In this document: positions 11,672 through 21,909 of the stretch, piece after piece | Position numbering within the stretch: position 1 is the first letter of the stretch | Layout: every line of letters begins with the position of its first letter | Origin: Bdellovibrionia bacterium | GTDB lineage: Bacteria; Bdellovibrionota; UBA1018 | Direction of reading: 5' to 3' | Length of the DNA stretch: 29,586 bases | NCBI GenBank assembly: GCA_045805065.1 | Contig: JBJMMA010000143.1 | Location: forward strand, 1 to 29,586 | Notes under the pieces: generated by a model | The model's input: only the letters and a program-made list of their open reading frames with translations | What the model was told of the DNA's origin: nothing | Databases searched by the model: none | Translations under genes and position numbers: made by a program

Positions 11672-12766
11672 ATGGCCCACTCGAAATTTGTGGCGCTTTT
11701 ATTGATAGCCGGATCTGCCATTGCTGCAGAAAACTCATCCCATGGTCCTGAAGCGCGTCTTTACGATGGGAATCAAATCGTTGCTGAAATTTTAAGTTAT
11801 GACTCTCACTTGGGCGATGGCCTTTACGGCAATGTAGAGGAAATCACGCTCCGCGACTCCAAAGGTCAGATCACAAAAGCGGCAATGAAGCTTTTCAATA
11901 TGGAAGAAACAAAGGAGCGCAGACAGAGCGCGATTCATAACTTATCGTTGCTTAAGCCAGTTTTCGAGCAAGACCATCATGGTGTCCTCTCTCATTCAAG
12001 TTCAGGATTAAAACTCGTGCCCACTGGTGCCAGAAGGAGCAAACGTTCTGTCGATGTCATCATCAGTCCACTTGTCAACGGCTCCGTCTATTCGAAAAGC
12101 GAGATGCTCGCGCTCAAGCCAAAAACACCCGACTTCGAAGCGCGTCTCGACGTGCTTTTAAAATACAAACGACAGGTTTTAGAGGGGATGTCGCTTCTCG
12201 CGTCCAACGGGCTTACGCATGGGGATGTCAAACCTGTGAACGTGCTTTATGCTTTGCAAGCAGGCTTTGATTGGAAAAATCCTGATCCATCCAAGATTCG
12301 GTTCATGCTATCCGACTATGACACAGTGACGCCCATTGGTAAGAGCTTTTCAGACTTTGGTTGGAAGTACGCGCCGCCCGAACTGCTACTCAATCATACC
12401 GATCTGGCTTCACCGGCCTCTGATCTCTTCAGCCATGCCTTATCCGTTTACCAACTCGCATTGGGCAAACCATCCTGGGAGCATCAGGCCGACAGGGAAA
12501 AACTCTACGCCAACCCAAAACTCTACGAAGAACACCTGAAAGCCTTGGATCACAGTTTTGCCCTGCTTGAAGAGCAAGCTCCCTCGGAATCGTCCCGCAG
12601 GAAGATCAAAGAGCTTCGCGACTTTGTCAGCAACGGCTTAAAGCACTCTCCAACAGAACGCTTAAAGGCTTTCCCAGCGATCTGGGCGAGCCATTTAAAG
12701 TACGCCCACGCAAGTGCACCCTGTGAAAATCTGGCCGAGCGAGTAGAGGCGCTTTTGCGTCATTAA
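11672..12766 (+). CDS. Signal-peptide-bearing Hanks-type Ser/Thr protein kinase
   Basis: Signal peptide MAHSKFVALLLIAGSAIA|A; GDGLYGNV, AAMK, HGDVKPVN, DYD (DFG position), YAPPE, SDLFS. Confidence 0.85.
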   Translation: MAHSKFVALLLIAGSAIAAENSSHGPEARLYDGNQIVAEILSYDSHLGDGLYGNVEEITLRDSKGQITKAAMKLFNMEETKERRQSAIHNLSLLKPVFEQDHHGVLSHSSSGLKLVPTGARRSKRSVDVIISPLVNGSVYSKSEMLALKPKTPDFEARLDVLLKYKRQVLEGMSLLASNGLTHGDVKPVNVLYALQAGFDWKNPDPSKIRFMLSDYDTVTPIGKSFSDFGWKYAPPELLLNHTDLASPASDLFSHALSVYQLALGKPSWEHQADREKLYANPKLYEEHLKALDHSFALLEEQAPSESSRRKIKELRDFVSNGLKHSPTERLKAFPAIWASHLKYAHASAPCENLAERVEALLRH

Positions 12767-12775
12767 AAGCGCCTC
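12746..12775. terminator. Hairpin between convergent genes
   Basis: GAGGCGCTTTT-N8-AAAAGCGCCTC, an 11-bp perfect stem over the kinase stop codon; no clear U tract. Confidence 0.45.
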
Positions 12776-12812
12776 CAAAGACCTTAAGTCCTCGCTCAAA
12801 CAAAACTGACTT

Positions 12813-13013
12813 TTACTTTTTCTCTTCGTGCTTACAGCTATCCTTGTCGCACTTGCCTGACTTTGCACAATCGCACATCTTGCATTTGCATCCCTTGGAG
12901 TCGCCCTTTTGACATTGGGTCATGCACTGCTTGCTACAAGCACATTCCTGGTCAGCAAAAGCAGGGGTAGCTGCCATGAGAAGGACGGATAAAGCGAAAG
13001 CTTGGCGGATCAT
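12813..13013 (-). CDS. Secreted Cys-rich, metallothionein-like peptide (66 aa)
   Basis: SD AGGAGA before ATG 13013; signal peptide MIRQAFALSVLLMAATPAFA|D; mature part has 10 Cys in 46 aa including three CxC pairs, Lys-rich, no Phe/Tyr/Trp. Confidence 0.75.
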   Translation of the reverse strand: MIRQAFALSVLLMAATPAFADQECACSKQCMTQCQKGDSKGCKCKMCDCAKSGKCDKDSCKHEEKK

Positions 13014-13100
13014 AGAATCTCCTGTCTTATAAGCGCTCAAAAGTATTGAGCTTTTACACACTGCTCGTTTGAGCCAGCCGTCTGGCCACTCAACCTATAA

Positions 13101-20089: not shown

Positions 20090-20100
20090 GGAATTGACCG

Positions 20101-20526
20101 ATGCAAAACAAAGACATTCTCTTTCCAGTTTGCGCGATGGTCTTACTGACCGTGATTATGCAGTTTGCTTTATTGCGTGCTCGCGGCGGGGCGATCAGGC
20201 GGGCGAAAGTGCGATTGCAAGAGATCGCTGGAGCAGACAAGTTCGATCAGGTCATGGTTGGAACTGAGAATATCTCTGACCATTTTGAGAACCTTTTTGA
20301 AGTCCCGGTTCTTTTCTACGTAGCGGCCGTTGCCATCCTTGCACTTCAACTTACCGATCCATTTTATGTGATTGCAGCATGGGCCTTCGTGATCCTGCGA
20401 TATGTCCAGAGCTACATCCACTGCACCAATAACCGAATCAAGCATCGCTTTTACGCTTACTTCTTGAGCTCGATGCTTGTCTGGGTCATCTGGGCGCGGA
20501 TTGCTTATCAGTTGCTCAACAGCTGA
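20101..20526 (+). CDS. MAPEG-family membrane protein
   Basis: Several TM helices; F.NLFE.PVLFY and R.V.S.IH...N....RF motifs. Confidence 0.85.
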   Translation: MQNKDILFPVCAMVLLTVIMQFALLRARGGAIRRAKVRLQEIAGADKFDQVMVGTENISDHFENLFEVPVLFYVAAVAILALQLTDPFYVIAAWAFVILRYVQSYIHCTNNRIKHRFYAYFLSSMLVWVIWARIAYQLLNS

Positions 20527-20541
20527 CCCAAAAGAGGCTTA

Positions 20542-21909
20542 TCAGCGGGTTAACATCCGCTGCTTCAGCTCGTCGTAAAGACATTGGTTGGTCATCGCAA
20601 GACCCGCAAGGCCCACTTGGATTTTTCCAATCGGGCGATGCGCGGGATCGGGGTGCATTTTCAGCATCGCCCGATTGTAGCCATCTTGAGTCTGAAAGGC
20701 GATCTTTGGAGCCATGCCTTGCTCAACCAGCTCAAGCATTGGACCACCAAAGCCACCTCCCACCATGCGGGCGCCATAAACGTGGTCAAGTTTTAGTCCG
20801 TATTTTACAGCTGCATCCACCTCAGGCGCACAAACCGCATAATCATCACGAGATGAGCGATGAGATGCGGTCAGAATCTGACCCGCCTTTTTCCAATCCG
20901 CCTTGCGAATGGCCTCTCTGAAATCCAGGACGCGAGCGTTTTCGGTGACTACATGTCGAACGCGCTTTTTCAAAAGCTCAGGCAAGCTTTGATAAGGAGC
21001 CTTCTTTAGATCCGCAAGAGTCATCTCACCCAAAGCAATGAACTTGGGAAGACGCGCTTTTTCTCGCTTTTCATTGATGAGCTTGAGAGCCTCATCCGTC
21101 TGTCTTCTGCGCGCGTTGAAATTATCATCGCCATGATCATCAGAAAGATCGTGTTTGACGCCGCTACTGAAAACGACGAACTCGACACCCTTGGGAAACG
21201 GAATTCTCTCAAACTTCGGGTTCTCAGCATCCGCAAAATCCATGAGCAGCATGCTGCGAGACTCGTCTGACAGACTGATCGTCAGCTGGTCCATCATGCC
21301 GGTCTTGGATCCCACAAAGCCGTTTTCGACTTTCTGGCCCAGGCGCGCGATCTTCACATCATCCAGATCTTTCCAGCCAAAAGCCTGCCGAAGCGCACGA
21401 AACTGGGCCACTTCGAGTGCAGCGCTCGATGACAAGCCCCCACCGCCAGGAATGTCTGAATGGACAGTCAGCTTATAGCCTCGTGAGGCATCGTATCCTG
21501 CGTCTCGTAGAGTTTTCGTTACACCTTGAAAGTAATCGATCCAGGATCCGCGCTTTGCCTCATGACCGAGCAGATAACGCTCTTCGAGAACATCGACCGT
21601 TCCATCCTCTTTTTTCACAATGCTTGAGATCAAGACATTCTTGTCGTTGGGATCCGTATTGGGAACCAATTCGACCGTGATCCCGATTTTCTTACCGCCA
21701 TCTTCCAGCGGCATCGCAATGACTTTGCCCCCCGTATAGTCCGTGTGGTTTCCGATGATTTCCACACGACCCGGGGCAAATGCGACGGTATGGACTGGCG
21801 GAGTATTCTGAGCCGCCAGTGATGGAAGGATAAATCCGCCTGACATCAAAAGGATTTGAGCCGGCAAGCGAAGCCAGTTCAGGACTTTCAGTGACCGTTG
21901 AGAGAGCAT
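20542..21909 (-). CDS. galK: Galactokinase-family GHMP kinase with N-terminal signal peptide
   Basis: APGRVEIIGNHTDY, WIDY, IPGGGGLSSSAA, GMMDQ, RHVVTENARV, SHRSSRDDY, GARMVGGGFGG; N-terminal extension ending SLA|A. Confidence 0.85.
   Translation of the reverse strand: MLSQRSLKVLNWLRLPAQILLMSGGFILPSLAAQNTPPVHTVAFAPGRVEIIGNHTDYTGGKVIAMPLEDGGKKIGITVELVPNTDPNDKNVLISSIVKKEDGTVDVLEERYLLGHEAKRGSWIDYFQGVTKTLRDAGYDASRGYKLTVHSDIPGGGGLSSSAALEVAQFRALRQAFGWKDLDDVKIARLGQKVENGFVGSKTGMMDQLTISLSDESRSMLLMDFADAENPKFERIPFPKGVEFVVFSSGVKHDLSDDHGDDNFNARRRQTDEALKLINEKREKARLPKFIALGEMTLADLKKAPYQSLPELLKKRVRHVVTENARVLDFREAIRKADWKKAGQILTASHRSSRDDYAVCAPEVDAAVKYGLKLDHVYGARMVGGGFGGPMLELVEQGMAPKIAFQTQDGYNRAMLKMHPDPAHRPIGKIQVGLAGLAMTNQCLYDELKQRMLTR

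Follow-up and report, generated by a model that had tools for sequence, protein, structure and literature searches.

A Cys-helix tag on exported cytoplasm-type enzymes of a Bdellovibrionia bacterium, a possible address for prey-directed effectors

The contig JBJMMA010000143.1 of a Bdellovibrionia bacterium (assembly GCA_045805065.1), analysed over its whole length of 29,586 nucleotides and called the window below, encodes four proteins that combine a predicted Sec signal peptide with a short, Cys-led amphipathic helix, here termed the Cys-helix tag: a Ser/Thr kinase, a small kinase-like protein, a galactokinase-like protein, and a protein of 1009 residues. In the genome of the window (G000; 4.22 Mb in 262 contigs, 94% complete), about 40 signal-peptide proteins end in [small]-C-[I/V]-x3-[L/I]-[K/R]-x2-[L/F]. 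Sequence clustering places the tag bearers in roughly 16–20 unrelated families, and it is strongly supported that nearly all of them are cytoplasm-type proteins whose domains need ATP, NAD, or a DnaK partner. The tag is modular, conserved, and under selection at the protein level. With about even confidence, we regard it as a post-Sec tether or address for prey-directed effectors.

Shape, frequency and conservation of the tag

The 3625 genes of G000 were called by us with a codon-usage score, and 860 of them were marked as encoding signal peptides by a home-made n-region/h-region/AXA rule, not by SignalP. The original prediction, made from the window alone, described a signal peptide and a terminal Cys followed by a helix on three enzymes; the tails and the Cys positions are confirmed, and by our rule the signal peptides of all four tagged window proteins have a basic n-region, a hydrophobic core, and an AXA-like site. 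The proteome-wide Cys enrichment that it proposed to look for among signal-peptide proteins is present. The motif C-x4-[LIVMF]-x3-[LIVMF], with Cys at positions -10 to -17 from the C-terminus, occurs in 29 of the 860 signal-peptide proteins versus about 4 expected from the internal rate, and in 22 of the 2765 other proteins versus 17 expected (Fisher p = 3e-7 for the link to signal peptides). At least 7 of these 22 are family members with a mis-called start or with a gene cut by a contig end. All credible tag bearers have signal peptides.

Terminal matches to a position-specific scoring matrix (PSSM) number 35 versus 0.8 expected, a comparison that is circular, as the matrix was trained on the same tails, all of them C-terminal tails of G000. 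The tags of the two window kinases are shifted in register by one residue and are missed by the PSSM; the tag counts for G000 are therefore lower bounds. The PSSM also undercounts in G007, a genome of another genus that does not have the nucleotidyltransferase–ADP-ribosyltransferase (NTase-ART) family described below, because it gives no match in a 768-kb sample in which a looser listing gives five signal-peptide proteins with shifted-register tags, in addition to the GalK orthologue mentioned below.

The tag comprises a short Ser/Ala/Pro/Gly-rich linker, a small residue, one Cys, and a mildly cationic amphipathic helix of 9–13 residues. The consensus derived from 38 tails is [A/S/G/N]-C-[I/V]-[V/L/T/I/Y]-x-x-[L/I]-[K/R]-[K/R]-x-[L/F], and the residue preceding the Cys is A, S, G, or N in 26 of them. 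Counted from the Cys, which lies at -10 to -16 in G000, the tails are 10–16 residues long, with a mean net charge of +1.1 (15 of the 38 are neutral or acidic), a mean hydropathy of 0.52, and a hydrophobic moment of the helix of 1.45, versus 0.89 in the C-termini of other signal-peptide proteins. In the AF2 model of a 669-residue NTase-ART protein (pLDDT 90), the tag forms a separate 12-residue helix (residues 656–667) after an 8-residue coil (residues 648–655); the pLDDT is 68–72 in the tag region and 96–98 in the preceding repeat domain. In the window Ser/Thr kinase and the galactokinase-like protein, the tag lies beyond the domain matches. Nothing indicates that the tails belong to the enzyme folds, in line with the original prediction. 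An intradomain disulfide is impossible in the single-Cys kinases, because the tag Cys is their only Cys. No Pfam or NCBIfam match covers the tail in the tagged proteins scanned (NCBIfam, 24 proteins, E ≤ 0.01; short models score low, and misses are possible).

When the last 20 residues are removed, the 43 candidates fall into 20 BLAST clusters, namely one cluster of 19, one of four kinases, two pairs, and 16 singletons, among which four or five (for example, PrkA and a Bd3614-like deaminase) are doubtful. Every Cys, Leu, and stop codon (two, six, and three, respectively) is used among the tails, and an 11-mer is common to the tail plus 80 nucleotides downstream in only 5 of 703 gene pairs. In view of this diverse codon use and the paucity of common 11-mers, the tag is not a DNA repeat.

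The Cys of the tag is often alone. Exactly one mature Cys is present in 125 signal-peptide proteins; in 20 of these it lies within 20 residues of the C-terminus (7.9 expected), and 18 of the 20 show the helix pattern. Two other kinds of Cys-bearing ending occur in the same genome. Cys at -2 is 4.6-fold enriched in signal-peptide proteins (30 of 860 versus 21 of 2765); the proteins concerned are mostly small, have an even number of Cys, and end in ...C-[K/Q/N/R/E/S], among them a paralogue group at contig C60 that ends in ...PCK. Such endings resemble common disulfide staples of protein termini and are separate from the tag. Three large proteins (515–870 residues; contigs C190, C198, and C182) have their sole Cys in a common ending, ...QDAFACQYIG[ND].

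The tag is not confined to the C-terminus. The best internal PSSM matches fall 5–20 residues past predicted signal-peptide cleavage sites, and among Cys sites, a score of at least 6 is reached by 9 of 299 at mature positions 3–30 versus 8 of 2234 elsewhere (p = 4e-5). Nine proteins have this N-terminal form by PSSM, and about 13 do when the single-Cys listing is added; they include a macro-domain protein whose gene adjoins that of a tagged AAA+ protein and an alpha/beta-hydrolase whose gene adjoins that of a tagged PLD protein. The original picture of a C-terminal tail has to be widened: the tag also occurs at the mature N-terminus, and its helix register varies.

The tag is conserved at 30–45% identity across genera and across the phylum. 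The small window kinase has 466 cluster representatives. Among its best 150 homologues, 104 pass the signal-peptide rule and 79 have a Cys at -8 to -19 followed by a hydrophobic tail; others have C-x-x-[L/F]-[L/F] nearer the end, and the Cys of the family ranges from -4 to -19 among these 150. Of the 401 genomes sampled across the phylum, 50 contain the kinase, closed ones among them; they represent 33 of 204 genera. Each of the 28 complete orthologous open reading frames (ORFs) that were read has near its N-terminus a hydrophobic stretch that by eye resembles a signal peptide, and each has a Cys tail, with the Cys at -23 in one case; 17 of them contain no Cys but that of the tag. As read from these sequences, the pairing of kinase and tag is phylum-wide. 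The GalK orthologue in G007 (44% identity) has a signal peptide and ends in ...AAKCLKSVLGNL, and the tagged proteins of that genome include an enzyme resembling GT5 glycogen/starch synthases (L144:15506-17962) and a J-domain protein (L147:9724-10794). Together with the exported GalK, these two hint at sugar-nucleotide and chaperone chemistry aimed outside the cell. Other bearers are narrower in range: the Ser/Thr kinase family is seen, within the order, only in the genus of the window, and the non-J part of the tagged DnaJ protein is found in 4 of the 401 genomes.

Proteins that carry the tag

By Pfam, NCBIfam, or fold, the tagged proteins comprise four Ser/Thr kinases, two small effector-like kinases, a GalK-like protein, a Clp-like AAA+ protein, J-domain proteins, a circularly permuted ATP-grasp protein, an mTERF-repeat protein, a PLD protein, a macro-domain protein, and the NTase-ART proteins; about ten belong to no family, and the tag of the Bd3614-like deaminase is marginal. 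The AAA+ protein (L001; G000:C51:22470-27254, minus strand) has 1594 residues, a signal peptide, three AAA+ modules closest to ClpV, ClpB, and ClpA, a single Cys, and the tag. The export of a protein resembling an unfoldase is in itself unusual; encoded next to it is a signal-peptide macro-domain protein, L092, with the N-terminal form of the tag. The mTERF protein (L015; G000:C202:8226-10526, minus strand) has a signal peptide, an mTERF repeat match (PF02536, 1.3e-41), and the tag; the mTERF domain is mostly eukaryotic and organellar.

Exported proteins of envelope type lack the tag. The original prediction had made this point for the outer-membrane protein (OMP) barrel, the M14 carboxypeptidase, the lytic transglycosylase, and the solute-binding protein of the window, and their tail sequences bear it out. 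As a control, 72 untagged signal-peptide proteins were taken from the 20 largest contigs, within the first 20 kb of each. Pfam recognizes 42 of them, all of envelope or membrane type apart from two PLDs: BamA, a DsbA-like oxidoreductase, binding proteins, PilQ, PilP, peptidases, a lipase, efflux and permease components, and membrane sensors. Soluble kinases and AAA+, J-domain, or nucleotidyltransferase proteins are absent from these 42.

Paralogues with and without signal peptides give a cleaner comparison. Among the five Pkinase genes of G000, all four with a signal peptide bear the tag and a single Cys, and the one without a signal peptide has no tag. Among the seven J-domain genes, both of those with a signal peptide are tagged or tag-like, versus none of the five without. 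Of the two GalK genes, the copy with a signal peptide is tagged, and the 360-residue cytoplasmic copy at contig C205 has neither signal peptide nor tag. Summed over these families, signal peptide and tag go together in 7 of 7 cases, and so do the absence of a signal peptide and the absence of a tag (7 of 7).

The largest group of bearers is the NTase-ART family, an unannotated and strongly expanded family that joins, behind a signal peptide, a nucleotidyltransferase resembling CCA-adding enzymes to a fold like that of diphtheria toxin and PARP. The 1009-residue window protein and 18 paralogues share an N-terminal region of about 520 residues, and two further copies are cut by contig ends, making at least 21 in G000 (window 14330-17359, L002–L006, L010, and L029–L041). 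The AF2 model of the shared region has a pLDDT of 91. Residues 15–309 of the model match class II CCA-adding enzymes (Foldseek E 3e-4; VIA Z 11.1, rmsd 4.3, 208 residues aligned). Residues about 310–460 match the catalytic domain of diphtheria toxin (VIA Z 6.1, 93 residues aligned, rmsd 3.1), diphtheria toxin homologues, tankyrase, and PARP1–4 (Z 5.0–5.4), and the RES/ParT/MbcT toxins (Z 4.5–4.8). The nucleotidyltransferase and ADP-ribosyltransferase (ART) labels of the original prediction thus hold at the level of fold (Z 11.1 and 4.5–6.1); for the putative ART domain, whose Z values are middling, the assignment is a fold-level call. C-terminal to the ART fold is a variable number of helical "HPEW" repeats of about 30 residues, whose profile matches a designed armadillo protein (E 5e-6), and the proteins end in ...HPELRRLTGGxxPTxxNLxxAFxxGES, 6–8 residues, and the Cys tag. 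Several members of 830–930 residues have a single Cys, that of the tag.

At least 507 homologues of the family are found in metagenomes. In 96 of the best 120, a Cys at -9 to -18 (mode -11) is followed by a tail of hydrophobic periodicity, and the tag Cys columns C987 and C659 are at least 90% conserved in alignments A1 and A3. Some homologues bear C-terminal Ank, HEAT, RasGEF, or FGE-sulfatase domains, and members ending in an FGE-sulfatase domain are among those without the tail Cys. The family is present in 11 of the 116 genomes of the order. Among species-representative genomes, it occurs only in uncultured metagenome-assembled genomes (MAGs), labelled Bacteriovoracaceae, Pseudobdellovibrionaceae, Bdellovibrionales, Bdellovibrionota, Oligoflexia, Deltaproteobacteria, and Proteobacteria.

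The 1009-residue protein carries the tag internally, in SCVEQIKLRLTL with Cys668, before the hydrophobic segment, as the original prediction stated; Cys585 is its only other Cys. BLAST alignments of this protein to its paralogues end at about residues 650–657, where the paralogues bear the C-terminal tag. By its position at the end of the conserved region, the internal segment appears to correspond to the C-terminal tag of the 18 paralogues; a MAFFT alignment does not place the two together, and the correspondence rests on the BLAST end-points. In a Rosetta-stone search, the 331-residue stretch after the internal tag has no relative in G000.

Genes of the window

The tagged proteins of the window and their exported, untagged neighbours are listed in Table 1. 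The Pkinase match of the Ser/Thr kinase scores 63 bits, versus a cut-off of 31.7, and Cys351 is the sole Cys of the protein. G000 contains three further tagged paralogues with signal peptides; a word-index search at 1e-10 finds no match but the kinase itself. The small kinase-like protein has no match in a Pfam scan, scores 0.95 and 0.94 by language-model features against the clusters of the effector kinases SteC and OspG, and resembles RIO1, Kdo, and Pkinase folds in structure (TM 0.5–0.6). The signal peptide of the GalK-like protein comprises about residues 1–33 (nt 21909-21811, minus strand). NCBIfam galactokinase models match this protein at 7.6e-75 but below their cut-offs (TIGR00131, 217 versus 227), and we therefore call it galactokinase-like. 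The kinase and galactokinase calls of the original prediction are borne out by the Pkinase match, the GHMP domains, and, for the small kinase, the SteC/OspG-like features and fold.

Table 1 Features of the window (nucleotide positions; residue numbers refer to the encoded protein)
Feature	Position	Strand	Basis
Ser/Thr protein kinase, 364 residues, signal peptide and C-terminal Cys-helix tag	11672..12766	+	Pfam Pkinase 2.8e-17, residues 44-333
Predicted Sec signal peptide of the Ser/Thr kinase, residues 1-18, ...SAIA/AEN	11672..11725	+	Home-made heuristic, score 35.2, cleavage after residue 18
Cys-helix tag of the Ser/Thr kinase, Cys351-His364, CENLAERVEALLRH	12722..12763	+	Beyond the end of the Pkinase match
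1009-residue protein: signal peptide, nucleotidyltransferase, ART fold, helical HPEW repeats, internal tag, hydrophobic segment, unique 311-residue extension	14330..17359	+	Sequence, BLAST, AF2, structure search
Class II CCA-adding-enzyme/poly(A)-polymerase-like nucleotidyltransferase domain, about residues 39-333	14444..15328	+	AF2, Foldseek, VIA
ADP-ribosyltransferase-fold domain, about residues 334-484	15329..15781	+	VIA
Internal Cys-helix tag copy, Cys668-Lys680, CVEQIKLRLTLEK	16331..16369	+	Sequence; BLAST end-points
Hydrophobic Gly-rich segment, residues 681-698, directly after the internal tag; possible membrane segment	16370..16423	+	Read from sequence
Small effector-kinase-like protein, 282 residues from a TTG start (ATG at residue 6 also possible), signal peptide and C-terminal tag	17322..18170	+	Feature and fold similarity
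Cys-helix tag of the small kinase, Cys269-His282, CGLLIKRALFDLTH	18126..18167	+	Sequence; Cys269 at nt 18126
Galactokinase-like GHMP kinase, 455 residues, signal peptide and C-terminal tag	20542..21909	-	Pfam GHMP_kinases_N/C and GalKase_gal_bdg, all three above cut-offs
Cys-helix tag of the GalK-like protein, Cys443-Arg455, CLYDELKQRMLTR	20545..20583	-	Cys443 at nt 20583-20581
Extracytoplasmic function (ECF) sigma factor	13170..13721	+	Pfam Sigma70_r2/r4/ECF
Multi-pass membrane protein, gene overlapping the ECF sigma gene	13718..14233	+	Position, hydrophobicity
Untagged exported control: OMP beta-barrel-like protein, ends ...GYNF	10617..11645	+	PF13505 match weak, below cut-off
Untagged exported control: M14 zinc carboxypeptidase, tail ...LELSEQF	18770..20089	+	Pfam 1e-70
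Untagged exported control: SLT lytic transglycosylase, tail ...YKFQTQR	24408..25664	-	Pfam SLT 6e-22
Untagged exported control: family 5 solute-binding protein, tail ...APLSRLR	25474..27228	+	Pfam SBP_bac_5 1.2e-52; true start probably downstream of 25474

The ECF sigma gene and the overlapping membrane-protein gene (13170-14233) lie amid the four tagged genes and might regulate this island; by its position and hydrophobicity, the membrane protein is a possible anti-sigma factor. A MAPEG-family membrane protein (20101-20526, plus strand) is encoded between the carboxypeptidase and the tagged GalK-like gene. Elsewhere in the window, a weakly coding ORF (7318-7959, minus strand) matches IS200-like Y1 transposases (PF01797, 3.3e-5) and may be a relative of REP-associated transposases. 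Three tandem flagellin genes are located at 543-1391, 1879-2712, and 3207-4040, the first recognized by Pfam and the others by their near-identical N-termini.

Possible roles of the tag

In the reading that we favour, a tagged enzyme is exported by Sec into the oxidizing periplasm of the predator. There, its helix would attach to a receptor or to the surface of a membrane, and the lone Cys would bond covalently to a carrier or a component of the envelope, in the simplest case through a disulfide; a lipid is the less likely partner. The link would hold and sort the enzyme until its handover to the prey, and the reducing prey cytoplasm could then release it. We infer the whole series, from docking, Cys chemistry, sorting, and lipidation to delivery into the prey cytoplasm and release. 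G000 encodes a DsbA-like protein; where such an oxidase is present in the periplasm, a lone thiol that escapes lipidation should, by established Dsb biology, be drawn into a disulfide with another molecule. That some bearers have the tag elsewhere than at the C-terminus agrees with a tether or anchor no less than with a secretion signal.

A more specific proposal would make the tag the handle of an unrecognized post-Sec delivery route of predatory Bdellovibrionota, in which folded effectors dependent on ATP or NAD, docked by a disulfide in the manner of AB toxins on a shared membrane-associated carrier or translocator of the predator envelope, would be carried into the prey and released by reduction in its cytoplasm; we consider this rather unlikely. 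In AB toxins such as diphtheria toxin, the classical release of the catalytic chain is by reduction, in the target cytosol, of a single interchain disulfide formed in the periplasm. A disulfide of this kind would be the parallel for the tagged proteins, and the NTase-ART family has a fold resembling diphtheria toxin and PARP, but no B-chain-like partner is identified for the tagged proteins.

The tag shares its position, Cys, multiplicity, and signal peptides with known sorting tags but fails to match them in the transmembrane segment, the Arg cluster, and the CPBP partner. It has little in common with the lipoprotein lipobox, in which [LVI][ASTVI][GAS]C stands at the end of the h-region of the signal peptide and the Cys becomes residue +1: only the small residue before the Cys is alike, and the Cys of the tag lies far towards the C-terminus or 5–20 residues past the predicted SPase I site. 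The closest comparison is with MYXO-CTERM-type signals, as characterized in two sources, one on Cys-bearing C-terminal sorting signals processed by proteases of the CPBP/Rce1-like class (Haft 2023, 10.1101/2023.06.07.544157) and one on tripartite C-terminal sorting signals (PMC11980579). Those signals are likewise found near the C-terminus, in many copies per genome, on otherwise unrelated proteins with N-terminal signal peptides; they have an invariant Cys in a short signature, comparable to the Cys column of the tag noted above; and a type II secretion system (T2SS) secretin, which goes with them, is present in G000 as a true GspD. In contrast to them, the tag has no transmembrane helix after the Cys, which is followed by only 9–15 residues with K/R common at +6/+7, has no terminal Arg cluster, is found also at the mature N-terminus (9–13 copies), and is carried by cytoplasm-type enzymes, not by surface proteins.

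The protease partner differs too. G000 has a single Rce1-like/CPBP gene (PF02517), on contig C247; the five tagged genes that form the largest tag cluster are about 6 kb away. Orthologues are found in 4 of the 116 genomes of the order, beyond G000 only in G008, G011, and G047, and not in the tag-rich genomes G001, G079, G036, and G090 or in G007 (84–95% complete). Lacking co-occurrence with the tag across the order, the protease is rejected as a tag-processing enzyme.

This rejection is one of several results that weigh against a tether or address for prey-directed effectors. All-against-all BLAST over G000 and 33 loci from 11 MAGs finds no conserved neighbour of the tagged genes; the only recurrent neighbours are histidine kinases, ABC transporters, pseudouridine synthases, and antisense shadow ORFs, and no candidate gene for machinery or a carrier emerged. 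All signal-peptide calls rest on the home-made rule, which also scores N-terminal membrane anchors. In a helical-wheel reading, the commonest register of the tag places the Cys on the polar face of the helix. A secretion signal would not normally sit at either terminus, or in one case inside the protein and ahead of a hydrophobic segment, as the tag does. An 800-kb sample of the distant closed genome G123 shows no convincing tag beyond that of its tagged kinase, and Cys near C-termini is not enriched there (22 of 236 signal-peptide ORFs versus 46 of 409 others); use of the tag by many families may be confined to one family-level clade, that of the window. For the two-step route of Sec export and tail-dependent sorting in the original prediction, what stands is a terminal module that is tied to signal peptides and to enzymes dependent on ATP, NAD, or chaperones and is absent from envelope-type exports; the co-occurring machinery genes that it looked to were not found.

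Other readings of the tag have to be set against this one. The helix could act in the target cell as a membrane-targeting device like those of MinD and FtsA, cytoplasmic proteins with C-terminal amphipathic membrane-targeting helices, and pin the enzymes to the inner membrane of the prey, the Cys being secondary (redox sensing or no role). Both are cationic amphipathic helices of 8–13 residues at the extreme terminus behind a flexible linker, in the tag at either protein end; some tags resemble ...KRLFGG, and distant family members end in ...RRLFGG, ...KRIFGK, or ...KLFGGR, endings that we take to resemble the MinD motif. The position of the tag directly before the hydrophobic segment in the 1009-residue protein likewise suggests an interfacial location. 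However, this reading leaves unexplained the near-invariant Cys (columns C987 and C659), the depletion of all other Cys, and the strict link to signal peptides, and to our knowledge, membrane-targeting helices have no Cys and are found on proteins without signal peptides, whereas the tag bearers have signal peptides and their paralogues without them are untagged. We judge it unlikely. The lone Cys could instead serve periplasmic handling, making disulfide dimers or mixed disulfides that keep the enzymes inactive or folded, with action in the bdelloplast or in leaky, killed prey and no translocation step. Intermolecular disulfides are what a lone Cys beside a DsbA-like oxidase is expected to form, no translocation machinery was found, and some payloads are toxin-like (the ART fold and the Bd3614-like deaminase with its marginal tag). 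But one dimerizing or silencing helix for about 20 unrelated families is improbable, and enzymes of 40–170 kDa still need ATP, NAD, or DnaK, which implies some entry into the prey cytoplasm; this possibility seems quite unlikely to us.

Effectors against eukaryotic cells, whose Cys would be S-palmitoylated by host enzymes and anchored to host membranes, would account for the eukaryote-like payloads (mTERF, the OspG/SteC-like kinase, J-domain, PLD, and PARP-like ART proteins) and for the homologues with Ank, HEAT, or RasGEF domains. Cultured members of the phylum prey on bacteria, however, and bacterial prey lack eukaryotic lipidation enzymes. The occurrence of the tagged small kinase in so many genera of the phylum also weakens the idea, signal peptides are not typical of effectors injected into eukaryotes, and VirB4 and TssC, the two markers of type III, IV, and VI secretion-type systems searched for in the 94%-complete G000, were not found. 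Legionella effectors exploit host prenylation (PMC2916131, PMC13081727) and an amphipathic helix beside a Cys directs palmitoylation of a eukaryotic protein (PMC5481580); the tag resembles these CaaX and helix-adjacent palmitoylation signals in offering a terminal Cys as a lipid-anchor site on delivered enzymes but has its Cys at -9 to -18, not at -4, on proteins with Sec signal peptides. We regard host lipidation as very improbable. An artefact, be it chance, common descent of paralogues, a DNA repeat translated at the ends of genes, or the usual terminal disulfides of secreted proteins, might draw on a broad excess of Cys, about 2-fold across the last 18 residues of signal-peptide proteins and due in part to ordinary ...C-x-end disulfide staples, and on the fact that 19 of the 43 candidates are paralogues of one family. 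It is already largely refuted and has next to no probability left: some 16–20 unrelated families are tagged, tail codon usage is diverse with no common k-mers, the single Cys of many bearers allows no intramolecular disulfide, the tag is kept across genera and phylum at the identities given above, and the paired-paralogue comparison is clean. The remaining weight goes to some further explanation.

An incomplete literature search, PMC12622784 included, gives no description of such a tag. If the delivery route exists, the complement of prey-directed effectors of these predators could be read in silico from the tag: about 50 proteins here, including exported kinases, a Clp-like unfoldase, J-domain proteins, and at least 21 NTase-ART enzymes. 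As closed genomes from across the phylum contain the small tagged kinase, work in growable organisms may be possible. The tag would allow candidate prey-directed effectors to be listed from sequence, could serve as a portable handle in reporter fusions, and would offer one residue, the Cys, with directly testable chemistry; it bears on how invasive and epibiotic bacterial predators get enzymes into the interior of their prey.

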